Made by a program: the position numbers and the translations under genes. A DNA stretch of 54,473 nt, the filler included, from Jimgerdemannia flammicorona (Eukaryota): NCBI GenBank assembly GCA_003990765.1. It is 3 parts of 3 records of this genome, joined end to end, with 100 filler letters (N's around TTAATTAATTAA, not from the genome) between each part and the next. Parts side by side here need not be neighbours in the genome. Positions count along the whole stretch, not along the records: positions 18,193 to 36,283 come from RBNJ01002309.1; 2 more parts are not named here. One strand, written 5' to 3'. Under the pieces are notes generated by a model that was given only the letters and a program-made list of their open reading frames with translations, did not search any database and was not told where the DNA came from. This document shows positions 15,315 through 38,381 of the stretch, piece after piece (the first letter of the stretch is position 1; the number at the start of each line of letters is the position of its first letter).

Positions 15315-16494
15315 TACGTTGAAGTTGATGGGCAGGTTGTGTGATGAAGGTGCGTGTGAAATGTGGTGAATTTTATACCTGTGCGATTTCCAAACCGCGT
15401 TTCACGACAGATCGGTCGACTATGGCATAATGCCAGTGATGTCCGACCATTGCCGGGGCGTGTCAAACAGTCCGGCAAAGCCCCGGAGCTCTGGTCTTTG
15501 ACAAATGCACCCAACGCATTTGTCATTGACCGCTGAATTACGTAATTTTGCCAGTTAGCACGCACCTCCCAAAAACAGCCCAGGACTTGTTCGACTTCCC
15601 CAACTTTTTGGTCAATGCAAGTGACAATGAAAATACGTACTACGTAGTAAACAATCATGCAATCCAGTCAAGCAATGGGAATCACAAACCTTTAGAACGA
15701 AACATCTCACCTTTTTTTGTTCGGCGTTGTAAAGACATTAACATGGTGCTGCCGTTTAACACCATGCCGCACCAAGTTACTTTTGATCCACCTCTCTATA
15801 ATATTGCATCAAGACGAACTAGACAACGTTTCGTCTTTCAAATTGTACCCCTGGCGGGATGGGCCGAATCCGCCGTGCCGCGACTGCGTGCAGTGGAGAA
15901 ATTCGCCGATTATCCGAAGCCAACAAATAATTACGGAACCTTCTAAGGTATTCCAAACACCTGCCATGCGTCTTCTTCCGGCACGTTTTCCACCATGTCG
16001 GCCATTCCCCTTTGTCTCACTGACACCCACAGGACAACCCTCGAGCGTGCCACACATTAGATCGGCTGCTGGTTGAGCAGTGGTGCGTAAAGTTTATACG
16101 AAAAGCTATCTCAAAAGCAGTTTCGCGATGGCGGTATTATTATGCACTGTGTTCTCATTCTCAAAGTTCAGCGAAACAGGAGCATGAAATCCCAATTCAG
16201 ACACGTCAAAGAGCGCGTTTCGAAAATGCGGTCGAACTCAGCGACGGGACTTTCCACCGCTTTGAGCAGCGTGTCGCCGCGGACGCCGATATCACCATAA
16301 AGAGAAGGGTCGAAACCTCCGTTCGTGTATTATACAGATAGAGAAAAGAGACGAAGGCCAACGCGGTGCTATAATAAGCACGTTAAGAAATTGTGCGTGC
16401 CAAGTTCAAGGACATCGATGTCCATTTCGAGTAAACGAGGGATAAGCGTCTACTTCGGTCCAGTTAAGTTCTGCGTAAACAAGCGACGAAGAAG

Positions 16495-16551
<57 letters not shown>

Positions 16552-16920
16552 GATTTTTTAGCTTACACTGAGCTTCAGACACGAAATTCGGATTTTCAGG
16601 ATAACACAGCGCCAAAACAAGCCGTTTCGATAACGGAGGGTCGAAACTTGAGATTGAGCGTTGATGACGGAACATATCATAAGGCGCTGGTCAGCTTATT
16701 TTGCTTTTGCTGACAATACCCATCAAAATTTTATTTGAAAATGTATTATCGAATCTTATATTTGCCGTACATCCAGTATCATGTTAGAATCCATCGGAGA
16801 ACGCTTCACAGCAATCCACATCTCAAAACTCGGGAATTGCGGACGGCAAAGATACCAATAGAATCGACGTCAGGTGATTATCACGTAATTAACTCCGCCA
16901 ACAGTGTGCAATATTTAGTT

Positions 16921-17222
16921 ATTTAGTTATAATGATTTATTTTATTTATTTATTTATATCTATTTTAGAACAATAAGAGATATTTACAAAATTCTTTTTT
17001 TATTTTAAATAATAAAATATAAAGTTTAAATATTTTAAAGTTAATTATTTTATGTCATAATATAATAAATATATATTTAATCTAAAAAGTATATCAGATT
17101 TCTTTATCTTGAATTCTTGTCTTCTTTAACTTTTTATTATGAAAAAAATTCAGTTTTAAATATATTTATTAACTCTAGAGTATATTTATAAAAATATATT
17201 TTATAAATATAAACTTTATAAC
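16921..17222. repeat. Extremely AT-rich relic (hypermutated repeat)
   Basis: Abrupt shift to almost pure A/T, as in the 24.1-28.6 kb block. Confidence 0.55.
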
Positions 17223-17312
17223 TGTAATAGACAAGTGGCAGACACGAACGGTTATCACGTGATCCAGCGATGACGTCACAAACGAGCGACATACGAACGA
17301 GACCAACGAGAC

Positions 17313-17753
17313 TGCCCCTTTCTCCACTACCATACTGGTCACAAGGTTTTGATAGGCAACCTTCCAAGTTCCTTTTCCATAACTTTTACCCCCTCTACCT
17401 TGGGTTGGTTCACTGTACCTGCTGCAGGATAGTGGGAGGAAGGCAATGGTAATGAGTTACCTTTTTATCAGTATTAGATCAGTGCTTCCTTTACTTTTTT
17501 GCAGTTTCTGGTACCTCCAACTGTATCTGAAGTGTGCCTGTTTTGGTGTGGTACCTTCTTTCTTTTGCCTATCATCACCAAGGTATCATCTCAATATATC
17601 ACAGGCTATGTAGGAAGTCAGCTGACCTTGGATATTAAGTATTAGTAAAGGTTTTAATAGATTCTTAGTATCTATAGCAGGCTCTCTAAGCTTTGGTGAG
17701 CTTTTTGGTAAGCACAGTTCTGGCATAGGTGACTGCTTTTCAGATGGTATCAG
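17313..17753. repeat. Unclassified interspersed repeat, copy 1 (homologous to ~34555-34990)
   Basis: CCCCTTTCTCCACTACCATACTGGTCACAAGG aligns to CTCTTTTCTCTACTATCATACTGATCACAAGA at ~34557; collinear for ~430 bp in the same orientation. Confidence 0.8.
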
Positions 17754-18092
17754 TAGTGCTTCGAACGAGTCAATCCGGATGGGATTCGGATGGATTCGAA
17801 TCAACCATTGTTTTGATTTCCAAATTAGACAATTAAATGTTTACATCAATAACTTGATGAATAATCATTCAAATTTGATGATCTTGGTGTCATTAGAAAG
17901 CCCTTAATAAGGCCTTTCTAATGATACCAAGAACATTAAAATCAGATTATGTGTTGCCGAGATAATAAGGAAAACGTTCCATTTGACGAAATTTCCAAAA
18001 TCGGCAAATCAAAGAATTTCCAAAATCGGCGATTCAGACATTTTCCTTCATAACTCAGCAACGCATGATCCGATTTCAATGTTCTTAGTATC
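17754..18092. mobile_element. End of an hAT-like DNA transposon/foldback element, truncated by the assembly gap
   Basis: Starts TAGTGCTTCGAACGA, similar to the TIRs of the MITE at 25564-25918. Hairpin 17882-17900/17914-17932 and inverted repeat 17923-17977/18038-18092. Confidence 0.6.
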
Positions 18093-18192
18093 NNNNNNNN
18101 NNNNNNNNNNNNNNNNNNNNNNNNNNNNNNNNNNNNTTAATTAATTAANNNNNNNNNNNNNNNNNNNNNNNNNNNNNNNNNNNNNNNNNNNN
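18093..18192. other. Artificial contig linker (44 N + TTAATTAATTAA + 44 N)
   Basis: An all-frame-stop spacer inside an N run; the same structure occurs at 36284-36383. Confidence 0.97.
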
Positions 18193-21100
18193 TTGAAGGT
18201 CATTATCTGCAATTCTAGTAGAACCAGCTGATTCTTCAGTCCTATGGAAGCCATCTGCCAAATCCTGTTTATCAAGACATCACAGCCGACCATCCAAGAG
18301 GTAGACCAACTAGAAGATATCAACAGAGGACAAGGAGGCTTTGGAAGCACCAATAGAAATCTACGGACACCACCTGTCGAGGTTCATTTGGCAACAGTTG
18401 CTCAATTCCGACAAATGAGACCCCATATCTGCTGTCCAATCCGAGCAAGAGAAGACATCCTCCTGCAGCCCTACCAGCAAAAAGGCCTAGATGTGCACCT
18501 ACCAGTAGAAGCAAACAACTTGATATTTGCACCATCACTGGAGCTTCAAAAGGAATACCACATCCTCCTGGCTGAAGAATGAATTCATGATCAGATGTCA
18601 CCAATCCACATCCCTATCAGAAACTCGGGCTTCGAAGTGATAACTATCCCCAAGGGAACAACACTGGGATATTTCGAACTACTGATAGACACCTACGAGG
18701 AAGAAGTCTTCGAATTCTTGAGAAACGGCAAGTCCTCTCCAGTGAGACTGATGGTACCAGGGAGGAAGACTCAGCAAATTCAGCAATTAAAGCCATCGAC
18801 ATCGAGACAACTCTAACCAAGGACCAGCAACAACAAATACAGGAGTTGATAGAGGAGTACAAAGATATATTTACCACCACATATGATAACTTCCTACCAT
18901 ATCAATATGGAGAACACCCATATATACTGGAGATGCAAGACTAATCCGACAATGACCCTACTGAACACCACATCATCTGATTGAATTTGAACAACAACAC
19001 ATAGATGAAATGCTATGAAATGGAGTCATCGGACCATCATCAAGCCCCTGGGCCTCACCAGCAATCATAGTACCAAAGAAAGGAGGATGGAGATTAGTCG
19101 TAGATTTCAGAAAACTCAACAAAGTTACCACAGAAGATGCCTACCCACTGCCAAGAATTGATGACCTCATCAATGCCCTCGGAAAAGCCAAATACATGAC
19201 CACTACTGACCAGTTCCAAGGATTCCAAGTAATACCCATTGCCAAAGAAGATATCTGTAAGACGGCCTTCATTACCAGATGAGGATAGAATGAATACCTA
19301 CGAATGCCCTTTGGACTCTGCAATGCACCTGCCTCATTCCAATGAATGATAAACTATATCTACCGGGACCTCATTGGAAGAAATGTACTAGTGTACATAG
19401 ATGATGTTATCATCTACTCTGAGACATTCAAGCAGCATTTGCAAGACCTCCATGAAGTATTCGATACCATTTAAAATTCAGGACTCAGACTCAATACCAA
19501 GAAGTGCTTCTTTGGAAAACATCAAGTCGAATATCTGGGATATATTGTCTCAGCTCAAGGAACACATGCCGACCCTCACAAGGTGGAGAAAGTCAAGAAC
19601 TACCCGACTCTGACCTCAGCGAAGGAGACCCTATCTTTCCTTATGCTGGTATCCTACTATCGACGATTCATCCCAAGGTTTTCAGATAAGGCAGCACCTC
19701 TCCGAGATATCTCCAAGAAGGACCAACCATTCTACTGGAAAAAGGAACAATAAAAGTCATTCGATCTACTCAAGAAGGCCCTTACCGAAGTTCCTGTCCT
19801 GGTGTGACCAGACTTTGGCAAACCATTCATCCTGGCAACTGATGCCTCAGCCTTAGAACTTGGATCAATTCTGTCTCAGCAAGATGACCAGAAGAGGGAG
19901 CATGTTATCGATTATGCTAGCAAGGCCATGAATGAAACACAAGCGAACTATAGAGCTACTAAGTTGGAATGCCTAGCAGTAGTTTGGGCTGTAGACCACT
20001 TCCAACACTATTTCTTGGGAAAGAGATTCGCCCTCATCACTGACCATTAAGCTCTACAATGGTTGTTCAATAAGCCGGAGCCCTCAGGAATCTTTGCTAG
20101 ATGGATCATGTCTCTGCAAGAATATCAGTTCACTATTGTCTACAAGAAAGGTGCTAAGAATTCCAACGTCGATACTCTGTCAAGAATCCCATGAAACCAA
20201 CAAGAAGGGAAGGAGCCCCCACAAGAGAAGGCTACTTCCCGCTCACCCAAATGAACCAAGAATTGCGTCTCACCCTCACCTGGAGTCTGCACCATAGAAG
20301 CTTCAAGAAAGGAATCCAACCAGCCCACAAGTTGTTTATCCAAAGGAATTTCAAGAAATTCCAAGAAGGCGATGGCAAACTTTGGAGAGTAGAAGGAGAG
20401 CAGTACACCCAAGTTCCAAGAGAAGAAGAAATATTGAAGATCCTAACAACAAATCATGACCAAAATGTACACTGAGGAATTGGTGCCACAATCGCAAGAA
20501 TCAAGAAACGATACTGGTGGCCCAAGATGAGAAAACAAATTTCAATGTACATTCAACAATGTGATACCTGCCAAAGATATCGACAAAAGCCTACTGACAG
20601 AGCACCATTAATACTGATCGCAGCACCAGCTAGAGCCTTTCAAAGACTAGGAATAGACATTATTGGACCTCTACCAGTAACCAGCCGAGGAAGACGCTAC
20701 ATCCTCACTATCGAAGACTATCTGACAAAATGGCCTGAAGCCTTTGCCATTGAGACTACTGATGTCTAGACAATTATTGGGATCCTGTATAATGAAATTT
20801 TCAGCTGTCATGGTGTACCCAAGGAAATCATTACAGACCAAGGCCAAGAATTCGTCAATCAAGCCATGAAGACCTTTGTGAGCAACTTCAAGATCAAGCT
20901 ACAACCAACAACAGTCTACCACCCACAGGCAAATGGACTCACTGAACAAATGAACCAGACCATCAAGCGAGGTCTCAGTAGAACCGAAGATCAACTAAAC
21001 TGGGATATCTATCTACCGGCAATTCTGTTCAGCATCCGTACCTCTAAGACAACTGCTACCCAACAGACCCCCTTCTATTTGGTGTATGGCCAAGAAGCAC

Positions 21101-21471
21101 AAGATCCTACTGAACCAGTCCAGCTAGATCTGTCAAAATGAGTCACAGAAGAGATCACCCGGTTATATGACATATGCCAGCAAGCATGAGAATTTATTGC
21201 CAAGGCACAAGAACGACAAAAGAGATACTATGACTGCAAAGCCAACCTCGAACCTCTGCTCATTGGACAAAAGGTTCTGGTGTACCGTACCATCATAGAA
21301 GGAAATTGGAGTGCCAAGCTTGAACCAAAATGGGAAGGCCTCTATCTCATACACCAAGTATTCTCGAACCACACTTATCAACTCAAGACCTTGGATGGAG
21401 TTATACTCAAGACCAAGATACATCGCAACCGCATAAGACTCTACCACTCAAGAGAAGCAAAATACATTTGA
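18193..21471 (+). pseudogene. gypsy pol (dUTPase/RT/RNaseH/IN) with many premature stops
   Basis: More than a dozen in-frame TGA/TAA/TAG codons, several at positions expected to be CGA/CAA/CAG (e.g. FQ*M, TDH*AL). Confidence 0.92.
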
Positions 21472-21515
21472 ACAATCCTGTTCACTCTGTCTGTGTTGTC
21501 TCCGCTGGAGATACA

Positions 21516-22073
21516 ATGGACGTTTCACTCGGAACTCAAGAAAGCCAACAATGTTAGAACCAGACTTAAGCCCATCCATGTGACAGACATTGTTACTAAG
21601 AAATTGCCTCAGATTACAAGTAATACTATTTCCGATGGGTTCAAACCCCCAGCCGCAACTATGGGAGTTCTCGCCTTAGACAAGGATGGCCAGTCCTCAC
21701 AAATGCACCAGCATTCTACTTGTCTCTGGAGTTAAGACTACCCAACTTTGTGTAACCCTCACCACTGAGGACGGCTCTAATTTTGCAAGGAGCAGATGTG
21801 ATGTACACAATTGACAATAGAGTACTGGTGACTGCTAAGATCAGACAACATAATGGCATGACAATCAAATAGACAGCCTGACCCATTAGGTGATCATTCC
21901 AAAAGAAGATAAGATGATCGGAGCCAAAATGAAGACCACGTTATTTAAGGAACCATACTCCGCCTCAAGGATCGGCACCAAAGAACCAAGTATCCACTAC
22001 ACAATGCCTCCCATTCGCCAAACCAACCAGACCTCCTGCCGCTCTACCCCTTTGCCTGGCCCAAAGACCCTGA
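21516..22073 (+). pseudogene. Extra ORF 3 of the gypsy element (~185 codons, interrupted by stops)
   Basis: One frame reads MDVSLGTQESQQC*NQT*AHPCDRHCY*..GWPVLTNAPAFYLSLELRLPNF..SFQKKIR*SEPK*RPRYLR. Each stop can be reverted by a single C>T or G>A change. Confidence 0.5.
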
Positions 22074-22990
22074 TCTTTGAAGCTATCAAGAAGGCCATCT
22101 GGCGCCCAGATACTTCCGAACACTTGAACTTCTACACTGAGGACCTTGGACACTTCATCAACTACCGGTATATAATGACCCAACAGCTCAAAGACACTAC
22201 CAAACGAATGACCCTCTGGCATGACTATGAAATCAGACACCGCCTTTGCAATGAGACTCAAGAAGGCGACCAGGAAGACCTCATTGCCGAAATGTTAACC
22301 ACCAGCTGGCTAATCAAGAGAGCCCTCCATGTCCATCAAATCTTCTGCCATATTCCCTGGACTATAGCACACTTGCAAGGAGTAACAGCTGGCAGCCTCT
22401 CCTGCCTTTCAACTGAAGATGCTGACTGGATAGAATCTGAAGTAGCCAACGCTATTGGCAGCAACTGCATCACCGTAGGAAGCCAACAAACCGAACCTAC
22501 TCAGCCAGGTTTCCACACCACCCCACTCCGAGATAACCATCAAGGTTACCTAATGAGTCTTATGGAGATATTTGAAGGACCGCCCATCACTATAGAGGCA
22601 CCTGTTGGAGCTACCCCAACCACCCACCACCCTGTCAGCCACAATTCACATCTCATCATTTGGGAACCGAATCAAGAAGAAGCCCAAGAAGTTCCTGTCT
22701 TTGAAGAGGAGGCCCAAGAACTCCAAGACCCTGCCTCTGAAGAAACCCCCTCTGACACTGAAACTGACGAGCCTTCAGAAGAAGAAGAGGAGCAACAGAG
22801 AGTCTACCAGTCCTCTGTCTACATTCAAGCTGTTCAAAGGTTGGAGAATGTTGTTGAAGATGACTGGCCACTTTTCTACCCCCTTATCTCTTGGCCAGTG
22901 CTTCCCCCCTTTGAGGAGAGATATGATGAAGAAGAAATCACAACCCAGCAAGATTTACCCACCACGGATGAAGGGTACTATTTTCTCTAG
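22004..22990 (+). CDS. Extra ORF 4 of the gypsy element, 328-aa unknown protein with acidic C-terminus
   Basis: Uninterrupted ORF (frame open from 21890) between integrase and the LTR. Likely start MPPIRQTNQ; E-rich tail; no recognised domain. Confidence 0.7.
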   Translation: MPPIRQTNQTSCRSTPLPGPKTLIFEAIKKAIWRPDTSEHLNFYTEDLGHFINYRYIMTQQLKDTTKRMTLWHDYEIRHRLCNETQEGDQEDLIAEMLTTSWLIKRALHVHQIFCHIPWTIAHLQGVTAGSLSCLSTEDADWIESEVANAIGSNCITVGSQQTEPTQPGFHTTPLRDNHQGYLMSLMEIFEGPPITIEAPVGATPTTHHPVSHNSHLIIWEPNQEEAQEVPVFEEEAQELQDPASEETPSDTETDEPSEEEEEQQRVYQSSVYIQAVQRLENVVEDDWPLFYPLISWPVLPPFEERYDEEEITTQQDLPTTDEGYYFL

Positions 22991-23040
22991 AGTACCGCCC
23001 ATTAGCTGTGAGAACCCAGCTTTTGTCAGCAAGTCCGTTT

Positions 23041-23238
23041 CCAGCATTACTACCCAGTACCACCATTTTTAGCATTTTTGTCAGCAGGTCCAAATTCAGC
23101 ATTGCCACCCTCTACAACCATTTCTGGTAACAATCATCGTATCATGTCAGCTCATCTGAATCCAGCATTGCTACCCAGTATCACCATTTTCAGCATTTTT
23201 GTCAGCAGGTCCAAATTCAGCATTGCTATCCCCTATAA
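23041..23238 (+). repeat. ~78-bp direct repeat pair in the LTR U3 region
   Basis: CCAGCATT.CTACCCAGTA.CACCATTTT.AGCATTTTTGTCAGCAGGTCCAAATTCAGCATTGC at 23041 and 23162. Confidence 0.9.
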
Positions 23239-24129
23239 CCCAATCCATAGTAAACAATAGCCTGTACCTCGCATCGTGCAAACCAATAGCATAAGTTCAC
23301 CACAATGTAGTATACCTTAGCCTTAGTCGCGCCCCTCCCCCATAGCTAGTAAACTTGTATAAATAACCCATATTCTTAGAGTGAATAAAGCCTCAGTCAG
23401 CTTGTGTTTAAAAGTAAAAAAGATTACAAAGAAACCACTGCCTCCAAGAGACCGAATAAATTCTGAGAACAAGATAACAACCTAGAGCAACAGATCACTC
23501 AGAAGTTTGAGTTAAAGAATTTTCTCTTGCCATGGAAAAGAAAATGTTACCCAACCGCCACCATTCGAGACCCAGCCAAGGATTCAAGACTACGACTGCC
23601 GCGCATTTCAGACCATCATTCAGACTGTGCATTTGACTGCTATTCGAGATTCAAGATCTGGAAAACCAAGGAACCCAAGGATACCCAGCCAAACAAGACC
23701 GTAGCCTAAGACCCATCAAGATACTCGAACAACCACCAAAGACCCAAGTTATCCCGCCCTTTCAAGCTAAACAAGATGGATGAGTGAGCCATCAACCGAT
23801 TCCCGACCTACTGTGCTACAAACCGTTTAAAGTCAAGACTATCGTCACCGAGTTTGCCGCCAAGTTAGCTGCCACCAGGAGACTGAGCCGTGCATTGAAC
23901 CAGACCAAGGAACCCAAGAATACTTAGCTTAGGAAAGCCAGCACCATTGTCATTCACCTAATAAGTCAAGATGGACGAGCGAGCCATCAACCTCCGTTTT
24001 CCCGCTATTATTGCATGAATCGAACGACCTGTCACATGACCATCAACCCGCGAACGTCACCAATGCCTTCAGTTATACATTATGCGCTTCACCAAGTAGC
24101 ACACATTGAGCCATACAGTCAAAGTTCAT

Positions 24130-25466
24130 TATATATAACCAATGCCACAATATATACCATATATCTCTCACAAGAAATGTATATCAAAGCTATCCTCAAA
24201 TACTTTAATATAAGTAAATATAAGCTAGTTAGCACTCTTATAGATACTTTTGTGAAGTTAAGAAAGTCAAATACTATATCTAAGAATGATGATAACAATA
24301 TGCCTACCATAAACATTCCTTATTAGCAAACAGTTAGCTCTTTTATATATTTCATACTAAGAACAAGACCTGATATATTATATGTCATAAATAAGATAGT
24401 ACAGTATTTCTTCTACTATGATAATTTACATTAGAGTACTATTAAGAGGATTTTATAATATTTAAAGAGATCAGTATACTATATGCTTATATTGAGCAGT
24501 AATATTGAATTAAATAGGAGCAATAGCAAGAGTAATAATATCTAGCTATCTGGTATATATAATGCTAATTGAGCTAGAGTCTTAGATGACTATTAATTTA
24601 TAACTGGGTACTTCTTTCATACTTACAACTAAGAATCTATTATTTTATAGCAAACATATAAGCAGAGTTCTATAGTAATATCATCAATATAGACAGAGTA
24701 CCAGATATTATTATTGATAACAAAGGAAGTCATTTGGCTTTAAAAGCTTTTAAAAGAGCTCAGATTTACTTAGAGGAATCTTATGCTAATTAGGTAAGAC
24801 ATTTAATCTATAATAGTACTTGCTAAAAATCTGATATACTATAGCAAAATGAAACATATCAATATATAGTATTATTTTATATATGAATATATAGAAACTG
24901 ATACTATATATCAAAAATATATCCTCACAGAATATATGATTACAGACTCATTGACCAAAGCTAAAATTTGAGCAATATACTAAAGAAATGAGTCTTATAA
25001 GCTATATACCAGTATTCAGTTAACTATAGGATAATTTTCAAACTATCAAAAGCCTCTCATATATACTATTTATATATCTAACTTTTATATTGATTATATC
25101 ATTTATCTATGAGAGAATTATATATATTATATTTTTCATATTTTATACCTATGGGTGGATATTTCTGTGAGTATTTTCAGATATATTTTGAAATACTTTT
25201 TAATCTGTAAAAATTCCTAGATAGTTATAGTTCTGGGTTATATATAGTTCTAGTTTATATGTATATATATTTTTTTTGAATATATTGTATTCTTTTTTTT
25301 AGGTTATATATCTCATTGAGCAAGAGTATTGAGATAGCAACTCAATATGCCAGCACATAACCTTATGCTATTCTATTAGATTTATATTATTTATCAGTAA
25401 TATAGAGAAATATATAATCTATGTAACTTCAATAAAATTGCCCCTCTCTTTATAATACTTATAATA
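24130..25466 (+). mobile_element. Hypermutated Ty1/copia relic (RT C-terminus, RNaseH, 3' LTR ~25327-25466)
   Basis: IYLSQEMYIKAIL, TRPDILY, YNAN*ARVLDDY*FITGYFF (DADWA..STTGY), TEY..KEVIWL, SKMKHINI, MITDSLTK. A purine tract is followed by TATTGAG, a mutated TGTTGAG. Confidence 0.88.
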
Positions 25467-25563
25467 TAATTATTATACTATTTAGAAAGAACTAATATCA
25501 ATATAAATAAAGAGCTCTACTATAAAATCATTATTTATTTAAAATAGTATAAAATACTCTAAT

Positions 25564-25918
25564 TAGTACTTTTAAATAAATTAAATCAATTTGAATTAAA
25601 TTAAATTCAAATTAAATTAAGAATCTGATTTGAACCCTATTTTTAGAAATATAATAACTTAATGAAAATATGTCCAAATTTAATAATCTTTAGCATATTA
25701 GATTCACTTTATATAAAAGAATCTAACAAGCTAAAAATGGTTAAATTTGGATATATATTCATCAAGTTATTATATTTTAAAAAATAGTATTCAAATTGAA
25801 TTTTAAATTAAATTAGCCTTTGATTTGATTTAAATCAAATCAAATTGAACCTTTGATTTAATTGAATTAAATTAAATTTGAATCAAATTTAATTTAATTT
25901 AATTCATTAGGAGTACTA
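25564..25918. mobile_element. hAT-type MITE, largely palindromic, with 8-bp target-site duplication
   Basis: TIRs TAGTACTTTTAAATAAATT / AATTCATTAGGAGTACTA; TSD ACTCTAAT (25556-25563) / GCTCTAAT (25919-25926); internal foldback centred ~25710. Confidence 0.8.
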
Positions 25919-25926
25919 GCTCTAAT

Positions 25927-28590
25927 ATCTAGAAAAATAAATATAAATAATTATCAATAAAATCTAAAAATAATTTATAAATAAAAAATTACTAGTTGTA
26001 CCTAAATATAAGAAGAAATAAGTAATAAAGTTAGTATATGAACATAATTATCTAAAAGGAATAAATATCTAAAATAAAGCTAGAAAAATAATATAATGGT
26101 TAGATATAAAGAAAGATATTAGATAATTTGTTAAGATTTATAATAAATACTAATAGTAGAAGTAAAACTAATAAAATTAGACCCTAGAATTAGCAGATAT
26201 AGAACTAATCTTATTTATCTATATAATAATAGATATAATTAATTCTCTACTTATAATATTGACTAATAACTAATATGTTATTATTATTATAGATCTTATT
26301 ATAAAATAGATAGAAGTAAAATCTCTCAAAGAAGTTAATATATAGTTAATTATTAATTTATTTTATAGAAAAATCTTTTGCTAATTTAAGGCTTTAAAGT
26401 AAGTATATAACTATAGATAAAAAAAAATAAAATTTGTAAATTAGCTTTTTTAGATTCTTTATAAGAAGTACAAGATCCAGTATATTTAAACTATAGTTTA
26501 TTACTTTTAAGAAAATGAATAAATAAAGAAGACTAATAAAACTCTTAAAAATATTATTATTAAGATTTGTAATAGTTATAAAAATTAAGTCACTATCTGT
26601 TAATAGTATCTATTTTACTTTTTGAAAATTACTATTTAGAGAAAAAAGTTCTAAAGAAAGTTTATTATTTAATAAAGATTTAGTATAGAAATATATAGAT
26701 ATAAAGATATAGAGATTATACTAAATAAAAAAGAAGTTTAAAGATTATATAACTAAGATATAGATATTATAATAGAATAATATAAAAAAAAAAATTATAA
26801 GCTCTTTGAGATTATTAAGATAAAAGACAAAGTTCTAATATATTAAAATATAGTAAAGCTTTATGAGTACAAAACTAGAGCTTAGTAAAAAAAATCTTAT
26901 TTTATATAATATATATATAAAAGAAACTATTTTTTAGCTATAAAGATTCTTAAATATATTTAATTATTTCTACTGCTATCTATTAAAACTAACTCAAGAA
27001 GTATCATAACTAATAAATAGAGTATAGCTATAGCTCTTAAAATTACTAGTACTACTTAGTAAGCTATCAAAAGTAATAGTATTTTACTATATTAATCTCT
27101 AACTATAGAGAAATTTTTTGATAATATTTAGAGTAATATATAGATCTATCTATTATAAATTTCTCATTTAGAGTCTACTATTATTAAGTAGAATTTCAAA
27201 AATACTTTAAGTTAGAATAACTTTTCAACTAATAACTAAATAAGATAAAAGAAGAATAGATTATTATCTATTAGATCTCTAATACTTATATTATTATTAT
27301 TAAATAAATCTTAAAGTTATTTATAGATAATAAACTAGCTATAGCTTATTTTTATAAAATAGTACTAAGAGATTTTATATAGATAAAAAAACACTATTAA
27401 GAAAATATAATTGAATAGATTATATAGTATTAGACTCTATAAGAAGTAAAAGCTTAAAAGTTTGAATAGATATTTTAGTAATAAGATTATTTATTTAAAA
27501 AAATATATATTATAATAGTTAATTCAAATTAGAAATAAGAGTTAAAAGATAGATATTTGATTATAGTATCTAAATATAATTTTTAATATAGTATAGTATA
27601 TTATAGTTAGTAGTTATTTGATATTATTAGATATAAAAAAAAATCTTATACTTGTAAGAAAACTTACAATTGTAGAAAAATTCTATAGTTATAAAATAAC
27701 TTATAACTTAGATATTATATAGTTAGTAAAATCTGTATAAATATTTCTAGTATTTAGAGTAAATATATCTCAGATTAAAATAGTTTAAGTAAAAGATAAA
27801 AGAACTAATAAGTCTATAGATAGATATATTTTAAACTTATCTTTATACTTTATTAAAGACTCTAAAAAATTAAAGAAGATCAAGTATTTAAGATAAAGTA
27901 ATCTACTATATTTTTTAGATTAAATATTTATTATATTATAATATTTAAATTTATTAAATTTTTTAAAATTAATAACTTTCTTTTAAAAAACCTAAAATTA
28001 TTATAATAGATATAGTTTTTTATATATTATTTTTTTATATTTAAAAATTATTAAATTATAATTTTTTTTAAATTAAATATTTAAAAATATTAATATAAAT
28101 AAAATATACTTAAATAATATTAATTTAATAAATCTTTAAAAGATTATTATAAGTATTTTAAAAAGTAAAGTTAAAGATACTATAAATATATTAATTATTT
28201 TAATATATATTTATAATATATACTTTACTTAAATATATCTCTTAGATTATATTATAAATATATATCTATAAACTTTTAATATTTATATATTTTAACTAAT
28301 ATTTATTTATATTAAATTTTAAATTATAATTTTACTTACTAAAATAATTATATTTTGTTTATAATTATTAAATTATAGACTATTTAAGTATTTAATTATT
28401 AAATAAAATTAAAAAATATTATGTAAGTCTGTTAAATATATTTAAAATATGAAAAAAAGAAACTCTATTATAAGATATTGAAGAATAGAAAACAAAGATA
28501 TTTTTAGTAAATTTATATATTATAAAACTAGAGCTTATATACTTAATAAATTAAATTAATAAAAGTAAAATATTTATAACAATTATAAAC
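25927..28590 (+). mobile_element. Second, extremely hypermutated gypsy relic (integrase, 3' region, LTR core ~27720) followed by AT-rich decay
   Basis: A mutated integrase is readable at ~26040-27000 (IDIINSL..YVIIIIDLIIK*IEVK, matching IDIIGPLP..DxxTKWxEA). Sequence 27721-27775 resembles the LTR TATA core at 23344-23400. Confidence 0.75.
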
Positions 28591-29522
28591 TGTCAACCAA
28601 TATATGGGTCACCATCAAAGACATATACAGTTGAAATGGTTATGGAAGGTACCAATCAACAAATAACTGTTTTGACCCCCCTGACGCGTGGTTGTGGAAT
28701 TCGTGTTGGGTTCGTGCTTGTTTCGCGCTGTGCGCGCTGCATGTAGAGAAAATCCGGTTCACTTTCTTTTTTTTCCTCTCTCTCTTCCTGGCAGGCTGAG
28801 TGAGTTATTTAAATTATTTAGCTGGATCGATTCCTTGGTTCGTTCGCGCTGCGCGCTGTACGCCATGCAATGCAGAATATTCGGTGAGATGTCTTGGTTT
28901 CGGGTGACGCTTGCCTGTTCGCCAAAAATTTTAATGAGCAAACTCCTTGGTTGATCCCATTTCAAAAGCTCGGGTATAAATAAGTTCAGCAATTCGGTAC
29001 TTTTTCCTGCACACAATGAAATGCATAGGCTTCTGGATTTATTCCGGACTACATGTAGTCCTTTGCATAAGAAGGCTTTCAGGCTTAAAAACCTGAAAGG
29101 CAAAATGGGTCCGAAAAAGGAGTCCCCGGGCCAATGGTGCTCGTTTGTGGCATACGTTCCCAACCTTCTTTAAAATTAGAATTAAACGAAAAACTCTTTG
29201 AAACTTCTTTCCAATAATTCGTATTCACTTCTTTGGCCTACTTGGTCTTGTGTTGACCTAAAAATGGAGTCGGCGTCTAAGCCTCGCCCTCTTCAACGAG
29301 AACTAACTCAGGCACCTCGTCTGTGATTCGTTAGTGTACCGCCGAACTTTGGACCTTATTCAAAGTGTTGCGTTTGACGCGAACGTTCTTTTCGCTTACA
29401 GGGAAACACAACGATCGTAGTGTGTGTGTGTATGTTTCGGACTGTGAACTTCTATGCTCATAATTGCGAATGTATACAGTCTCTTATAATATCCTTCATT
29501 CTCTCTCCCATTACTCTACAAG

Positions 29523-30986
29523 ACATCCCGACGGCCCAAATTCACGGACGACCAACTCTACTCTCTCAGCGACGCCGTCTCCCGCATCGAGCATCTCATC
29601 GCGATGTCAACGGTGAGCAGGCCGTGCACCTCATCAGCAGTCTCGACGATAAGGAAGGGTTGGGTTACGAGGAGGAGGAACAGGTGCGGTTTTAGATTCG
29701 GTTTTGTTCGGCGCGTTGCCTTTGTAGGTTTCCGGTTGCTAATGAATTTCCAATCCTCTTCAGACGGCCGTTTCAGACATCAACACTCTTCGCCAATACC
29801 TCATGTGGAAGTGCCGCGCCATCCAACCTGAGGAGTCGGGCCACGATGCCTCCGCCGAGGCCGTCGCAGCCATCGAGGAACGCAAGGAGCGCCGCGACTG
29901 GGCTCTCGACAATTTCACTGAACTGGCTGTCGGGCGGTGGGTGTTTTTATTTTATTTTTCCCCGTCTTCGCAGTTGGGTAAGGGCGAGAATCGCATAACT
30001 GACGTGTTTGTAGGCATCCACCTCGCCTTCATATTCTCAGGCATTCAGGGCCCTCGGCGACACCTACTGGCTCTCCTCAAACGACCTGTTCCGGTTGCCT
30101 GACTCGCCAAACATGCGGCAGCTGTGCTTGATCTTCCCGAGGATGTGAAGGAGCGGTATACAGCGCCGGTCGGGGCCGGTATCAGATGATGGGCAGATAG
30201 GTTTGAGGCCGGTGAGGGGCAAGCCGGAGATGAGAGCGGGGAGAGCCGTGGGGACAACGGGGAAGTGGGATATAGGTGAGGGCCATGTTTTTCCTTGATG
30301 TGGGTTCATAAAAAGAGGTAAATGCTTTAACACGTCCTATTGTTTCACAGAGGCAATATCGCCGATACCGCAAGATCGATCGAGTTCTTCCACTTCAAGA
30401 TTACCCTGGGTACGCTCGTCATGCTGGCCGTGTTCGATGTCAAGCATTCCTGGCGCAGTGCGACAGGTTCGGACAGGAGGAGACGACCTTATCAAATAGC
30501 TCGTTGATGCCGTGCGTCTGGGGTTCAACGGGTCTGAGGCCGAGCAAGTGGGTTTATATAGAGTGGTTTAGGAGGTTTGTATTCGTTGTCGTTCTTCGGT
30601 TAGTTGAATGTGTTTTATTTAGGAATGAGAAAAATACTGGTTTGTTTCTCAACCCCCAATCCTATTCTTCCGTACAGTTCTTCGAGCTCAACATGGACGG
30701 CCGTCACACTTCGATCGAACCCGCCATTGCATCTCGCTCGGCTCCTCGTGCACACCCTCAAATCCGGTGACGGCGCTGGCGTTGACGCATGGCCTCGCAG
30801 GTCTCCTCGCAGCACATCGTGGACATACACCGCGACGGCATCGCGTACGCCATATCTAAGGTCGCCTGCTACCAGCTCGTCATCAACCGTAACGCCAGAG
30901 CCATGATCGTTGATCGTCCGCCTTTTCAAAATACTCTCGGCCTTCTTGCAGGCCGTACCCATGGAATAGTTGCAGAAAGGATGTAA
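29523..30986 (+). pseudogene. Fragment of a cohesin Scc3/STAG-like gene (C-terminal half), frameshifted
   Basis: Exon-like pieces bounded by GT-AG read DQLYSLSDAVSRIEHLIA, TLRQYLMWK..RRDWALDNFTELAVG, FFELNMDG..HLARLL and HIVDIHRDGIAYAISK, resembling STAG LHKDGIEFA. Stops and frameshifts are present. Confidence 0.55.
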
Positions 30987-33843
30987 GTGTTGGCGTTATT
31001 TTGTTTGAGGGGGGTGCCCCTGGTGGGCTTGAGGCGGGTTTGAGGATTGAGCTGTCGATAGGCGCTAAGTGGTGATAGTGGGGTGAGTTCTCGGGGATTG
31101 GTATTTGGGTTTGTTTCGGGTTTAACGTGCTTTTTCCATCTTTGCACCCGATCGAAGCAACTCGAGGGTCTACTCGATTGACATTTCGGAGGGGTCAAAT
31201 CGTTACAAATCCTGGGTTACAATTCGGTAAAGGTCTCTATTTTTTTCATCATGGAATATTTTCCTCTTTGGCATCACGTTTACATCGATCACACTATTCG
31301 CAATCATTGTAGGCGATCCCGCCTCCGCCTCCAAGCGTTTCGGTGTCGCTATCCCAATGCACTGCAAATCGATCGCCGCCGTCCGCTCCGACGACGAAGA
31401 CGACGATGGTGAATCCACGGCTGTTCGGGACTTGGGATCCGCGCGGCGCCCGGGTAGCAACTATTGATGAGGAACGGTTTGTCGATAACCGCCGTGCGCT
31501 CAGAAACAAACGGCTTGCATCGGCGTGGACGACTAGTTCGGATCGCCGAGTAAGAGGGGGAGGAGGAGGCTGGATCAGGGAAGGATTCGCAGTCAGGATA
31601 TGAGCTTGAACCGGAGCTGGAGGGGGAGCAGGAAATGGTGCTGGAGGGTGGGGAGCAGGAAATGGAGCTGGCTGCCCCGGACGACGGCGACACGCGGGAG
31701 GACGGGTCGCAGCCACCTCGGCGTTCCGAGAAGCGCAAGCTGTCACCCATACAGAACTTGGAGGTTACAGCGATGGGGATGCGTAGAGTTCGTCGCTGGA
31801 TGTGAGGGGGGTCGTTGGGAAGAAGGCGAACGGGGATAAGGAGAGAGTGACGGGGAGAGCGTGGGGAGGAGGGGCGAAGAGATGAATTGAATGAGACGAG
31901 TGACAAAGGGCCGGTGTTCAGGCGAATGGTTGCGAGAGTGTGATTTTGCCTGTTAGCATCTAGTTGGAGTAGCATATCGGTCGTCTGGTCAAAAGTTGTA
32001 ATTTTTTCCTTTTCTCTTTTATTATTATTATTATTCTTTTTCTTTTTTCGCTTCTTTTCTTTTCTTTCCATCCGTTTTACCAATTTAGCCGTATAATATT
32101 GGTGTGATTGCTTATGTACGTGCGAAGTTCTTTCAGATTGTGGTTTGTTGACGCGCCTTGGTTCATTGTCACATATGCAATGCATTTCAGATTATTCCCT
32201 TCTCTTGTGGGTGAGCAATGTGCTTGCGAGCTAGCGAGCGCGGGCGGATGCGTGCGGACTGGCAAAATACGTTTGGGCAGGTATTGTTGTTGAACGAGCT
32301 GGCATGACGGACGACATGTATGTCTGAGGCTACATCACAACGAACACTGCGAGCCCCTGCTTTTATATACCTCATCAAATGAGTATGCGAGAAGCTTTAC
32401 GAGCCATCTCGCCAGCCTGGAAAAGAGTGCTAGTAGCTATGCTAATCTTATGCTAAATTAGCGCATCAAGTTTGATAAATCAAGAACGACAAGAGGTGCC
32501 ACTAATAACTACACTTGTCTAATCGATTCAAAGCGGCTTTACCTTCCCTCGAAAAAACAGCTTCCCTCGAGAACACTAGATAAGGAGAATCCAGCAAGGG
32601 CCCGCTTCCTAGGATTTTTGTCGAATGAAAAAACTTGTCAAATTTGCGGTGAGTAAGTATATGCTGTCGCGCCTGTTTGCCAAAAATTAAAGGTCGAAAT
32701 CGCTCAGTCACGCGCCGATCCGTCACCCCCCTAGTATAAACTGGCCTATCAGATTGATCGACCTCAAGACCTCTAGACACTTTTCTCGTAGCATTTGTTT
32801 GATAATATCCGCGTACGCGCAGATTCAAGTACTGAGGTCTCTGGATTTCAACTGGTGGGGATGTGGTTTAAGCATGGTGTTCATAAGATGATCGAACACA
32901 GCCCAGTTACCGTTTGTAACCAATGTCTCGCTAGCTTTGGGTCACGGTGGTTTATTAATATTTCCGATGCATGATGAGGATTCTTGTGGAAGAGGTGAGA
33001 ATAGCCGCATTAGATTTGTTGGTTATTGCAGTCATTGGCGCAATTGACACAGAGAAACTGGCATTGGACGGGATCAGTCGCAGGGTGTTTCAAAAATGGG
33101 TGTTTGCCGGCACACTTTCTTCGGCGAGTAATTGCACTTGGAAGATTGCGAAAGTGGCCGCCAGAAACTCGAATTCCGCCAAGGTGTCAAATATCATGTT
33201 TAGAAATGTTTTCGTCTCGCAAATAAAAGATCGATTTATTTCCAATAAACATGAATTGTAATGTTTTACGCGCGGTGGTCGACCGATTTTGTATATATGC
33301 AACCGCACTGTGAATCACGTCACGTGCGATTTATGTGATCTCCGCTAACAAATGAAAGTCAGATCTATCACGACACTTTTGCTAGTAAATTCCCTAAGTG
33401 AAGCGTCGCCGGGCAGCATGTCAAGCCTGAAAATGACCCAGTATTCACGGATTATCCTGATGGCGTGTTTCTTGCTTGAATGCACCGGATTTCCGATAGT
33501 TCAAATCTTATTATTCTCCCAAACTATTCCATTTATACAGCCAATTTATTATTAATGATAGGGCCCACGGAAGTGTCTCGAGCATGCGCATAGAACCATT
33601 CGGCTTATTTAGAGTTGCGAACGACTTCTAAGGACCCTCGCGCCACGTTCAACGTGAATTGCGTCACGGCCCCAAATGGGACGCGTCAACTAAACACGTT
33701 GCAACGCGTGCGGCACTTTATTCTGTCAGTCGATTTTGGAAGAACTCGGTATGTTATGACGGACGGACGATGCATTGGGGATTTCGAATTTAAGGTCTCT
33801 CTGTCTCTTCGATCCAGAGGGCATTAAATCCCCGCCTTACTAC

Positions 33844-34500
33844 TGTAATGTGCCAGCTCAATAGAGGCAAATTACAAGGTGGGGCAGCTGTGCAAGTTGG
33901 CTTGAGCCCCAGTTACTTTGTCAAAAAGTAACAAAATGTTGAATAGTTTGTTTCAGACTGATCTTAGAATTATCACAAATAGGTGGAGTTCTATCCTTAG
34001 AAATAAGCAGTAATCTTCTAGCTTAATCTGATAAGCAGATCAAATATAAAATAACTCAAAATAGATTTGACTTACTTTTGGCAAAAAGACTGGAGTGAAA
34101 TCAGAAAATAGCTTAATAGTAGCTTTTGAGCAGATATTTCTTCTAAGTGTTATAATCCTTTTTTTAGATCAAGTAGCTCTTAGCAGGCATATCTCTTAAA
34201 GTGTGTTAGGTAGACTTGTTTTTTACTTTTAACTTGAATTTTAGACTGTGATTTATTTACTTAAGTCTTTGGAGTATTTTATATAAGTATAGTTGCTATT
34301 TAGTTATTATCTAGATAATTATAGAATATATAGTAAGATTAATTTAGAGAAGATATGATCTCTCATTTTTTCAGAGAACAGATATCTCTTAGAGAACAGA
34401 TGTTCTGATTTGATATATCTGATTATTTATAATATATATAAATAACTATATATATATAGTAACTATATTAAGTATTATATATATATATTATCTAACTCTA
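33844..34500. mobile_element. LTR-like repeat, copy 1 (more mutated; homologous to 37223-38095)
   Basis: Starts TGTAAT; GCTCAAT.GAGGCA.ATTACAAGGT..TTGGCTTGAGCCCCAGTTACTTTGTCAAAA is shared with 37223 onward. Confidence 0.78.
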
Positions 34501-34554
34501 CTATAGTATTTGCTCATTATATATATTAGTCTTTATAAAAAATAGTTTATCTCT

Positions 34555-36155
34555 AGCTCTTTTCTCTACTATCATACTGATCACAAGATTGATAGATAAC
34601 TTTCTGAGTCCCCTTTTCTCTACTTTATCCCCCCCCTATCTTGAATTGGTTTGCTATACCTATAAGAGTATAGTGAAAGAGAGACAATAGTGATGAGTTG
34701 CTCCTTTATTAGTATCATATTGGTGCTTTCTTTACTTTTTTACAGTTTTTGGTATCTCTGACTATATCTGGGATATATCTGTTTTGGTGTAGCCTTTTCT
34801 TCCTTTTACTATCATTAATAAGATATCATCTTAGTATATCATGAGCTGTATAGAGTATTGATCAACCTTGAGTATTAAGTATTAGTATAGGTTATCTACA
34901 GATCCTCAGTATCTATAGTGGAGTCTTCTGGGCTTTGGTGAGCTTCTTGATAAGTATAGTGCTAGTATAGGTAACTGTTTTTTAGATGGAATTGAGATGG
35001 GAGGAGAGATGGCTATCATAGATAAAAGGAATATAATAATTCTAGTTTCTTTAAGAGAAAGTAGCTTAATCTGAAAGTTCTAGTTGGTCTAAAGTAACTT
35101 GAAGAGGTACTTAAAGATTCAAGTGTTCTTGAAGAATTTCTGAGAGAAAGTATTCTAAGAGAGAATAAAGATATTTATACATAATCTAAAAGAAAGATCT
35201 AGAAGGATCTTGGAAAGAAAGAGAAATAATAAGAAATAGATTCTTGGCAAAGATGACTAATACTATTCTACAATGTTCTGAAAGATTCTATAACTAGCTA
35301 AGATAAGATACTTGATACAAAGGAAAGACAAGAGTATTCTAGTGATGTCTGAGTGCTGAGAGAAGATTTCTAAGTAGAAGGTAGTGGAATATAATAGAAT
35401 GTTCAAGAAATATATAATAAGAAAGACTAACTAAAAGATACAAAAATATACTAAGACTAAATATGGCTGTGAAATTGTTATAAGAAAGGACAATTACAGT
35501 AGACCAGTAGAGTATCAGACTGAGAGTAGTCATCAGAGCTGGGGTAAGTACTATATCAGTAGAGCCTTCTGATTGATGAAGAGTGGTTAGATAGTAGGTA
35601 TCACTCTTAGCTACTTTTGATAATATATAGAATTAGGCCCCAGTCATTAAGAGTAGTCAGAGGGCCTGAGGTTATTCAGATCAGATATCTTAGCCATATT
35701 TAACTAGAATTAGAAGCTAATATAGCAATATGATCAAGGTCTGTAGACTTAAGTAGTGAGATATTGGAGATCTCTTTTTATCTTATATATAAGTTCTCTA
35801 CTCATCTCATTAGAGAGAACTAGATTCTATCTACTATTCTGTATTTTGAGAAGAGTTTTTCTTTATCTGTTACTCTTCTTGAGATAATGGAAGCTATACA
35901 AAGTAGCTCAGATATAGTCTTATATATATTAGAGTTTTAGATATGTCTTTATATATAGTTGTTTACTCTCTAGTGATAGAAAGAGCATAGTATATAGAAT
36001 GAGGTACAGGCAACTTTGTCTTACTGTATCTAGTATAGTCAAGTTACTAGACAATAGCTAGTCTAGATTTAATAAGAGTATAGTACTTAGTAGATAGTAG
36101 AGGAGGGTTTTAGCCTATATAATCTAAGTTCTCTTTTAATAAAAATCTACAGGAC
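34555..36155 (+). mobile_element. Unclassified hypermutated element; 5' part homologous to 17313-17753, followed by a stop-riddled coding-like region
   Basis: Direct alignment to 17313-17753. A downstream frame is E/K-rich with a possible decayed zinc knuckle (NCYKKG) at ~35470; the family is not recognised. Confidence 0.55.
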
Positions 36156-36231
36156 TTTGAGTTTGTTAATAATAATAATAATAATAACAATAATAATCTA
36201 TCTCAGACTATTCTTTAGTTATTATTTCATC

Positions 36232-36283
<52 letters not shown>

Positions 36284-36383
36284 NNNNNNNNNNNNNNNNN
36301 NNNNNNNNNNNNNNNNNNNNNNNNNNNTTAATTAATTAANNNNNNNNNNNNNNNNNNNNNNNNNNNNNNNNNNNNNNNNNNNN
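36284..36383. other. Artificial contig linker
   Basis: 44 N + TTAATTAATTAA + 44 N. Confidence 0.97.
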
Positions 36384-37222
36384 GATGAAATATTGTTTCT
36401 CCCTCCAAAAAAAAAAAAAAAAAAACTTAAACTCCAGGTCGTTGTTCAATCTCAATAGAGGTGACTTTTCGCCACTTCGTTAGAAAATGAACAGACAGTG
36501 TCAAAGTGCGTAACGACGGTCGGGACTTCAAGCGTTCCGACAGTTCGCAGCCCGCCACCATCATTTTAACTTTGTTGTATTACTTTGAAGTGCTGGCTGG
36601 ATGCTACACCTGGCCATCTGTAGAGTCATGAATGATCTCACTACAAGGAGAAATTCCGAGTACTTTGACCATTGACTTTTTTTCTTCTTCTCTTTTCGTG
36701 GAGTTTTAGCGTTTCTCGGGAACCCGAGGGTCAATGCAGGCTTTGGTTTCGAGTGAAGTGAGGAACATTATAAAATCATAGAACGCGTATTACGGATGCA
36801 TCTCAATCCTATTGTCTCGGACCTTCCTCCCCCAATCAACTCGTTCGATGCACCACCAGATATGGATCATGGAATGCCTACAATTCGCATACGAACGTCC
36901 CAAGCCATCGCCATCAATGCTGCTGGCAGTTTCGTTCCGCTCCCCATAATAATCGCGCCATCGTTTACAACACGATAAAGACGCGACCATCGTTGCCAGT
37001 ACAGTCACCCATTTGACGAGAAACGCCCCGTTTCGTTCTCATATACGAACCCCTGCTTGTTTTGATGGGCCATTAGGTATTTTTGAAAGCTTACGGATAA
37101 CCTCATAGGCCAATCTGGTTTTAGGGGCGCCAGTATCCATCGCTTGCGTATACGATAATTGGCGAACTAGGCATATCATTTTGAAAAGCAGCAGAAACAG
37201 AAACAATAGTTCGGTGATATAT

Positions 37223-38095
37223 TGTAACATGCCTGGCTCAATGGAGGCAGATTACAAGGTTGGGGTAGCTATGTAGATTGGCTTGAGCCCCCAGTTACTT
37301 TGTCAAAAGCAACAAAATGTTCAGTGGTTTCTCTCAAAAATAGGTGCAAGTTCTCTGGTTCACATAGTGTGGATGATTTCAGCGATTTCCTAATTAGATG
37401 TGGATTCGGATTTCTCAAGGTGGCGGATATCTTTAAAGTGAGTTCTTCAGGTTTAATCTGGTAAGTGAACAAAAATCAGCAGACTTCTTTGTATTGGAAA
37501 GTGGACCAGAGTGGAATTGGACAAAGCTCACAATCTCCTGAACAGTAGCTTTAGATTTCCTTTAGGATCAAGTAGCTCTTGGCAGATATAACTCTTGAAG
37601 TATATTAGGCAGACTTATCTTTTGCTTTTGAACTTTTCAGACTAAGATTTATTCACTCAAATCTCTGGGATATTTTATAAAAGTGTAATTGCTATTTGGT
37701 TGCTATCTGGGTAATTATGGAATGTACAGTAAGGCTAGGAAGATATTTTAGTTGGAATAGGCATTTTACTTGAGACAAGTGTTCCAGTTGGAACAGATGT
37801 TCCACTTGGAACAAGTGTTCCAGTTGGAACAGATATTCCACTTGAGACAAATGTTTCAGTTGGAATAGGTGTTCCACTTGGGATAAGTGTTCTAGTTGGA
37901 ACAGGTGTTCCACTTGGGACAAGTGTTCTAGTTGGAATAGGTGTTCCACTTGAGATGAAATCAACATACCTGATTTGGTACATCAGACTATTTATACAAT
38001 TTGTGGCACATGTGGATAACTATGTGGGGTAACTAAATTATATAAGTAGCAAGGCTCGTTTACACAGATAGGAGGCTACAGGACTCAAAGTTACG
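37223..38095. mobile_element. Solo LTR-like repeat, copy 2, containing a minisatellite
   Basis: TGTAAC...GTTAC termini; homology to 33844-34500; CpG-depleted. Confidence 0.72.
37745..37955. repeat. 18-bp minisatellite (two alternating units, 36-bp higher-order period)
   Basis: CAGTTGGAACAGRTGTTC / CACTTGRRACAAGTGTTC, about 11-12 units. Confidence 0.92.
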
Positions 38096-38381
38096 TGATA
38101 CAACAGCGAAAGGCCCAAACTGAAGTATATAAGTTTACATCTTTATAATAAAACAATGCAGCGGCCTTACAATGACCTGCATTGAGCAAAAGCCAGATCT
38201 GCAAGGATATTCCTGTGTCGTCGTAATGTCCTAATGAGATGCGCGAGACATTGAATTCCACAATTTTTACAAGAAAAAAAAGAACCGATATACATAGATA
38301 ACAAACGCCTATCATACACTCGAAACAAAACATAACATTGACAAACCACCTTCGGATACACGCAATTATCTAAACGCTATA

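Follow-up and report, generated by a model that had tools for sequence, protein, structure and literature searches.

The window analysed here is a stretch of 54473 bases of the fungus Jimgerdemannia flammicorona that comprises three contigs (positions 1-18092, 18193-36283, and 36384-54473; 18092, 18091, and 18090 bases, respectively). These near-equal, descending lengths suggest that the contigs were drawn from an assembly sorted by length. The contigs are joined by 100-base spacers of the form N44-TTAATTAATTAA-N44 (18093-18192 and 36284-36383), and adjacency across these spacers is artificial. Sequence located before 18193 or beyond 36283 therefore has no physical link to the subject of this analysis, an eroded block at 24130-28590 that lies entirely within the middle contig (contig 2). 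The block is composed of remnants of transposable elements (TEs), an older Ty3/gypsy element and a copia element abutting it or inserted within it. Both elements have been changed by a process that converts C to T on either strand, causes hardly any other change, and stays within the element ends. An original prediction had attributed this erosion to a repeat-directed mutagenic defence resembling repeat-induced point mutation (RIP), or to very dense CpG and non-CpG methylation with deamination, acting in an apparently non-Dikarya fungus.

The GC content, which is 0.44 at 23001-24000, drops to 0.28, 0.19, 0.16, and 0.16 in the successive 1-kb windows across 24001-28000, reaches its lowest value of 0.08 in the 500-bp window 28001-28500, and is back to 0.49 at 29001-30000. 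The segment 24130-28590 does not contain a single CpG, although its numbers of C and G predict ~33. The left edge of the block (24123-24130) is the junction with a younger, unmutated gypsy element, exactly where the composition switches. The right edge is as sharp as had been claimed: near 28590 the GC content rises from 0.08 to ~0.4-0.55, and unique DNA of ~50% GC lies beyond. As in canonical RIP, the change is thus restricted to repeats and its borders fall at the repeat ends, the block being made of TE remnants.

The first part of the block, at 24123-25031 on the plus strand, is a copia (Ty1) remnant covering the C-terminal part of the reverse transcriptase (RT) followed by RNase H. A phmmer search reports 23079 proteins at E<=1e-3, with a best single-stretch E-value of 3.5e-40 (1.84 billion representatives searched). 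The two domains stand in copia order, and the TRPDI and KHID-type motifs are kept. This remnant is riddled with stops, has a GC content of ~0.24-0.28 and no CpG, and spans 303 codons in a single frame with no frameshift; it is thus collinear with its homologs and shifted towards A/T, the consensus DADWA reading NAN*A, in line with the original prediction. Copia Gag, protease, integrase, and long terminal repeats (LTRs) are not present on contig 2, nor is there a second LTR copy with which the proposed TG>TA change of an LTR could be compared. The ensuing AT-rich stretch (25032-25959, also devoid of CpG) lies between the two coding remnants and probably includes the copia 3' end. It contains a foldback whose 128-nt arms (25578-25705 and 25719-25846), 77% complementary, are separated by a 13-nt loop; this segment (25578-25846) may be a small inverted-repeat element.

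The second part of the block, at 25960-28590 on the plus strand (the start being placed by eye), is the 3' part of the older Ty3/gypsy element. It comprises an integrase remnant (26037-26720, 228 codons without frameshift in the frame starting at 25902) followed by 3' sequence without assignment. Its Ty3/gypsy membership is given by homology to the integrase (H2C2 plus core), and LTRs were not identified. In a Smith-Waterman alignment that allows each T to have been C and each A to have been G, the remnant scores 446 against the intact gypsy integrase of the window, versus 229 +/- 10 for 20 codon shuffles and 217-225 for the other two frames; plain scoring returns 74 versus 25-26 in the other frames. 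Like the copia remnant, it is therefore collinear and A/T-shifted, as had been described. It is also the most eroded piece, with a GC content of 0.08-0.18, no CpG, observed/expected (o/e) ratios of ~2 for CpT and ApG, 0.29 for CpA, and 0.32 for TpG, and a loss of CC and GG as well. Other searches with this element did not return any hit: BLASTP against 50 integrases found no match with a first-guessed frame that is not the one later established, and a DNA-level comparison with the young gypsy in purine/pyrimidine (RY) space, which is blind to transitions, remained within its null (28 versus 25-28). Pfam analysis of six X-read frames of 23500-28700 reported no family, probably because of the composition of the block. 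A first transition-tolerant DNA alignment was discarded, its scoring being too permissive (633 versus 487-545 for shuffles).

No unmutated nucleotide copy of either eroded element was at hand, and the mutation spectrum was therefore deduced at conserved codons. For copia, 60 of the 150 listed homologs were aligned (BLASTP high-scoring segment pairs of >=250 amino acids, best 60 by score), and columns with >=60% agreement were considered. Among the resulting 122 conserved columns, 66 are kept and 56 are changed, with minimum changes amounting to 44.3 C>T/G>A, 1.0 T>C/A>G, and 27.7 transversions. The old gypsy integrase keeps only 15 of its 56 conserved columns, for 43.3 C>T/G>A changes, 2.0 reverse changes, and 11.7 transversions. 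The control is the integrase of the unmutated young gypsy, for which 50 of 50 homologs were used: 14 of its 62 columns are changed, with 8.0 forward transitions, 1.0 reverse transition, and 12.0 transversions. Transversions per column are 0.23 in copia versus 0.19 in this control, near-equal values that can be ascribed to lineage differences when the consensus is distant, whereas forward transitions per column are nearly three times higher in copia. No frameshift occurs in the 303 and 228 codons of the two remnants (~1.6 kb of coding sequence). A parallel increase of transversions and indels, which would have spoken against a directed process, is therefore not seen, although the forward transitions go from 8 to 44.3. 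The changes are balanced between strands, with C>T and G>A counts on the coding strand of 20.3 and 24.0 in copia and of 24.3 and 19.0 in gypsy. Changes thus fall on both strands, and nearly all are C:G to T:A, as in canonical RIP. Roughly half of the non-CpT cytosines have been removed from copia, and roughly 85-95% from the old gypsy.

The bases that surround the surviving cytosines reveal the context of the process. In the old gypsy (strands pooled), the 3' base of a surviving C is A in.13, C in.02, G in 0, and T in.84 of the cases, for a baseline of.26/.24/.28/.22 (A/C/G/T) in unique DNA. The share of surviving C before T is 84% in the old gypsy, 55% in copia, and 63% in a second eroded block of the same contig (34000-36283), versus 22% in unique DNA, and no C before G survives in eroded sequence. 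CpT is spared ~7-fold relative to CpA among the old gypsy survivors, and the 3' neighbour is a purine in only 13% of them. The 5' neighbour shows no bias (A+G.50, C+T.50). Repeat pairs of the window give a concordant ranking, the mutated fraction being.50 for CG (the ceiling of a two-copy comparison),.28 for CA,.24 for CC, and.12 for CT. The context rule is therefore CpG > CpA and CpC > CpT, in which the 3' base matters and the 5' base does not. A loss limited to ancestral CpG sites, which the original prediction had named as a counter-argument, is not what is found: besides the complete loss of CpG, CpA and CpC are heavily depleted, with CpT largely spared.

The RIP indices, read with thresholds from the RIP literature, split the block into two parts. 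In 26001-28500, TpA/ApT is 1.14-1.38, (CpA+TpG)/(ApC+GpT) is 0.27-0.43, and the composite index is 0.84-1.11, all five 500-bp windows being positive. In 24001-26000, which covers the copia part, the indices are negative (TpA/ApT 0.93-1.07, (CpA+TpG)/(ApC+GpT) 1.16-1.58). On the CpA>TpA preference of canonical RIP, the two portions of the block thus give a mixed picture.

Immediately upstream of the block lies the younger Ty3/gypsy element (18193-24122, plus strand), the 5' end of which is cut by the contig start. Pfam analysis of X-read frames reports a dUTPase (18193-18351), RVT_1 (19070-19549), RT_RNaseH (19811-20125), Integrase_H2C2 (20422-20583), and rve (20632-20925). This ~6-kb element has not been mutated by the C>T process of the block (GC 0.44, a few stops). 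It is depleted in CpG (o/e 0.44) with an excess of TpG (1.33) and CpA (1.15), a pattern of CpG-only decay. Homologs of its integrase do not exceed 41% identity in protein searches. Located 3' of the integrase, an uninterrupted open reading frame (ORF) of 366 amino acids (21890-22990, plus strand) does not belong to any Pfam family, and its sole database relative is a JGI protein of 325 amino acids with 77% identity. Downstream of the block, the right flank (28591-33840) is unique DNA with a GC content of 0.42-0.58 and a CpG o/e of 1.13, in which no gene was recognised and Pfam returned no family in six X-read frames. It is followed by the second eroded repeat block (33841-36283, plus strand), with a GC content of 0.21-0.33 from ~34000 onwards and no CpG, which has copies on both other contigs. 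Long poly-T/poly-A runs are observed at the end of contig 2 (~36254-36283) and within AT-rich sequence of contig 1 (~16550-16600); such runs may explain an assembly break.

The copies of the second block are relevant both to the host and to the spectrum. The segment 34556-34995 matches 17314-17753 of contig 1 (plus strand) in RY space with a score of 339, and 34149-34342 matches 37548-37738 of contig 3 with a score of 151, versus 25-28 for shuffles. The contig 1 pair differs by 103 transitions and 14 transversions over 437 aligned columns. The contig 3 pair differs by 40 transitions and 7 transversions. The alignment with contig 3 extends over 33841-34410 (~570 bp) and 37220-37825 (plus strand), and ~100 bp of it are highly identical without being AT-rich. 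Degenerate RY patterns derived from the copia remnant and from the shared repeat both match the window itself and found 0 loci in metagenome contigs. Two tandem arrays of contig 3 are also dominated by transitions: units of the array at 37750-37955 (36 bp x 5.7 according to TRF) differ by 19 transitions and 0 transversions, and those of the array at 47947-48291 (42, 51, 93, and 135 bp) by 14 transitions, many at CpG, and 1 transversion. Repeats elsewhere on all three contigs therefore show a milder form of the spectrum of the block. An internal control for the ordinary spectrum is provided by a tandem pair of MTHFR genes on contig 1 (Pfam MTHFR and MTHFR_C; ~850-3550 and ~4130-6850, minus strand), which are 67-81% identical at the DNA level and differ by 210 transitions and 262 transversions; these changes show no direction, and the CpG content is normal. 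Contig 3 also carries G-rich direct repeats of 2.1 kb (48318-50420 and 51319-53428) that are 65% identical and contain ORFs of 382 and 310 amino acids. They returned no Pfam family and no PDB match, and, a resemblance to a long interspersed nuclear element endonuclease being unconfirmed, they are left unclassified. The excess of C/G loss is in one copy of this pair, and the upstream copy is devoid of CpG and has a lower GC content.

The taxonomic anchor of the window is a CYP51 gene (lanosterol 14-alpha demethylase; 41476-43256, minus strand) on contig 3. Its 348-residue ORF (41473-42519) displays 98% identity to the J. flammicorona protein P0001, and its exons produce tblastn high-scoring segment pairs that are 97.5% and 97.8% identical to J. 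flammicorona. The next matches are from Endogone sp. (55%), a second J. flammicorona paralogue (51%), and many Mucorales (48-52%), while identity to ascomycete or basidiomycete proteins is at most 45%. The window would thus come from another strain of the annotated J. flammicorona or from a close relative of it. The non-Dikarya assignment proposed at the outset is thus borne out, with evidence from contig 3 rather than from the contig of the block, and the host is not an ascomycete, which removes the objection that an ascomycete would have raised and sets the locus apart from canonical RIP, expected within Ascomycota. Contig 2 is taken to belong to the same genome as the CYP51 contig because two of its repeat families recur on contig 1 and the CYP51 contig and because the GC content and the CpG and TpA o/e of non-repeat DNA are the same in all three contigs. 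The host assignment of the block therefore depends on another contig, joined to it only via common repeats. Ordinary host gene fragments detected by Pfam are a protein-kinase-like ORF (12593-13159, plus strand) and a class-I glutamine amidotransferase ORF (43625-44104, plus strand).

A directional and two-stranded change with a 3'-neighbour rule, limited to the elements and causing heavy cytosine loss with almost no indels or extra transversions, is what RIP leaves. In our view, the block is best accounted for, with a probability of a little under 0.6, by RIP-type hypermutation that is driven by an enzyme and restricted to TEs, rather than by ordinary decay. A C5-methyltransferase-like activity leading to deamination on double-stranded DNA would have been aimed at TEs or heterochromatin, and the unmutated young gypsy would have been inserted after the hypermutation. 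RID family proteins being reported only from Pezizomycotina, the enzyme would here be another, and a DIM-2/DNMT1-like protein is a candidate.

The main rival is a slow, age-graded decay, in which silenced TEs carrying dense CpG and non-CpG 5-methylcytosine (less at CpT) would have lost it by spontaneous deamination, with no dedicated hypermutation step. High TE CpG methylation is described in Rhizophagus irregularis, another Mucoromycota fungus (PMC8647823), and the young gypsy already bears the footprint of such methylation. CpG is lost first and most completely everywhere, and both the intact repeats and the gene paralogs are unaffected, as slow decay would have it. Loss confined to CpG with an excess of TpG and CpA is nevertheless seen in the young gypsy only: CpG-only methylation decay explains that element and does not explain the block, from which half to >85% of the non-CpG cytosines are gone with the frame intact over ~1.6 kb, with reverse transitions numbering only 1-2 and with transversions near the control level. 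Given the lack of frameshifts, the few reverse changes, and the control-level transversions, slow decay would require C>T changes at non-CpG sites to be far more than ten times as frequent as background changes. Moreover, we know of no non-CpG methylation in this fungal group, a further count against slow decay, which we regard as rather unlikely on balance, if deserving serious attention. Editing of retrotransposon cDNA or single-stranded DNA by a deaminase of the AID/APOBEC type would yield the same base change through C-to-U deamination, and retroelements are the usual targets of these enzymes. They read the 5' neighbour, however, and cDNA editing produces G>A on the plus strand only. The strong 3' effect (T after 84% of the survivors), the lack of any 5' effect, and the near-equal C>T and G>A counts on the coding strand make this origin highly improbable.

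The contig of the block could also derive from a RIP-competent ascomycete present in a field sample, or result from a chimeric assembly. The Jimgerdemannia assemblies that have been published were made from fruit bodies collected in the field (PMC10386755), the three contigs are unlinked, contig 2 harbours no gene of known taxonomy, and none of the protein hits to its gypsy is a named close relative. These points are countered by the two repeat families that contig 2 has in common with contig 1 and the CYP51 contig, by the presence on the CYP51 contig of sequence that likewise lacks CpG and is enriched in CpT, and of transition-only arrays, and by the identical non-repeat GC content and CpG and TpA o/e of all three contigs, so that a foreign or chimeric origin is very unlikely. 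Lastly, chance AT-rich low-complexity DNA with a spurious likeness to TEs would agree with the Pfam silence over the block, but it is refuted by the phmmer E-value of the copia remnant, by a gypsy score located ~22 standard deviations above the shuffles, and by the complete lack of CpG.

Several observations weigh against RIP-type hypermutation. Erosion is graded by nesting, being limited to CpG in the young gypsy, affecting about half of the C/G in copia, and nearly total in the old gypsy; hypermutation in several rounds would produce such a gradient, and slow decay over time would do so equally well. The CpA-based substrate index is negative for the copia part, the foldback arms are not a clean case (17 transitions and 12 transversions when compared without gaps), and neither is the G-rich 2.1-kb pair, which displays 497 transitions for 224 transversions with little sparing of CpT (CA.39, CC.27, CG.35, CT.28). 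A consensus built from distant homologs is no true ancestral sequence, and the scoring of the gypsy alignment favours C>T/G>A by construction. The evidence comes from one 54-kb window of an assembly that, presumably like the others, was obtained from field fruit bodies and is fragmented. Finally, canonical RIP is triggered by duplication before meiosis, as in Neurospora, and with the ~6-kb young gypsy and the MTHFR pair unmutated, no efficient system with such a trigger is apparent at present. The original prediction that a repeat-directed mutagenic defence operates at this locus is partly supported, what is observed being a footprint next to unmutated repeats. It is doubtful, if conceivable, that Endogonales run a true RIP-type defence, namely a repeat-triggered and sex-cycle-linked C-to-T mutagenesis without RID, using for instance a DIM-2/DNMT1-like enzyme, with a separate context rule (CpT spared, unlike CpG, CpA, and CpC). 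If this were true, RIP-type defence would either be older than Dikarya or have evolved on two or more occasions.

RIP is regarded as a trait of Dikarya, and essentially of ascomycetes, being accepted only in ascomycetes and some basidiomycetes. The block would thus represent a RIP-type footprint, as its sequence suggests, in a phylum where RIP is not accepted and with a somewhat different context rule. A clear footprint of this type in Endogonales would reopen the questions of when the defence originated, of which enzyme acts without RID, and of why the TE expansion was not stopped in this fungus, whose genome is reported to reach 240 Mb with >77% repeats (PMC7928374, PMC10386755). Our literature search did not find any analysis of RIP in Jimgerdemannia or Endogone, nor any report of such a footprint in Mucoromycotina, and Chang et al. 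2019 and Venice et al. 2020 may bear on it. The kingdom-wide k-mer screen of Badet and Croll 2025 reports repeat-directed signatures only in Ascomycota (PMC12543289); it considered only scaffolds >50 kb, and assemblies made of contigs of the present size would therefore be excluded from it.

The closest known system is the RIP of Neurospora crassa and other Pezizomycotina, which has in common with the block the two-stranded C:G to T:A change, the influence of the 3' neighbour, under which CpA suffers much more than CpT, the sharp-bordered confinement to TEs, and AT-rich, TpA-rich, and stop-riddled relics that keep their frame, with positive indices in 26001-28500. It differs in that the host is here a member of Endogonales, that the erasure of CpG and CpC equals or exceeds that of CpA, and that the copia part fails the CpA index; the neighbouring multi-kb gypsy and the tandem genes are unmutated, and the dependence on duplication is not seen. 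In Basidiomycota, the target of RIP-like hypermutation is essentially (T)CpG, whereas most of the loss in the block is at non-CpG cytosines; the two nevertheless share a C>T hypermutation of TEs outside ascomycetes without known RID. Examples are the TCG/CpG-biased changes described for Microbotryum and Rhizoctonia (PMC3318451, PMC5381629, PMC4014442). RID/Masc1 itself is documented only in Pezizomycotina (PMC5751038, PMC13297926). Outside Dikarya, a RIPper-index signal is mentioned, with caveats, for Zoophthora radicans and other Entomophthorales (PMC11105155). Like the present host, Z. radicans lies outside Dikarya and combines a large genome rich in TEs with a RIP-type compositional signal; it belongs to the phylum Zoopagomycota, and the signal described there consists of window indices only, while direction, context, and strand symmetry are here deduced at the codon level. 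The TE CpG methylation of R. irregularis, as that study describes it, fits the CpG depletion and TpG/CpA excess of the young gypsy, in contrast with the block, which lost its non-CpG cytosines too. Regarding the enzyme, a DIM-2-dependent, heterochromatin-linked RIP pathway is described in Neurospora (bioRxiv 10.1101/2021.04.05.438447), and, according to the review PMC13297926, Phycomyces has a DIM-2 homologue and DNMT5 occurs in some Mucoromycota. Such a pathway would provide a RID-independent C>T route at silenced repeats from an enzyme family that exists in Mucoromycota, although its extension from Neurospora to this fungus is purely conjectural.

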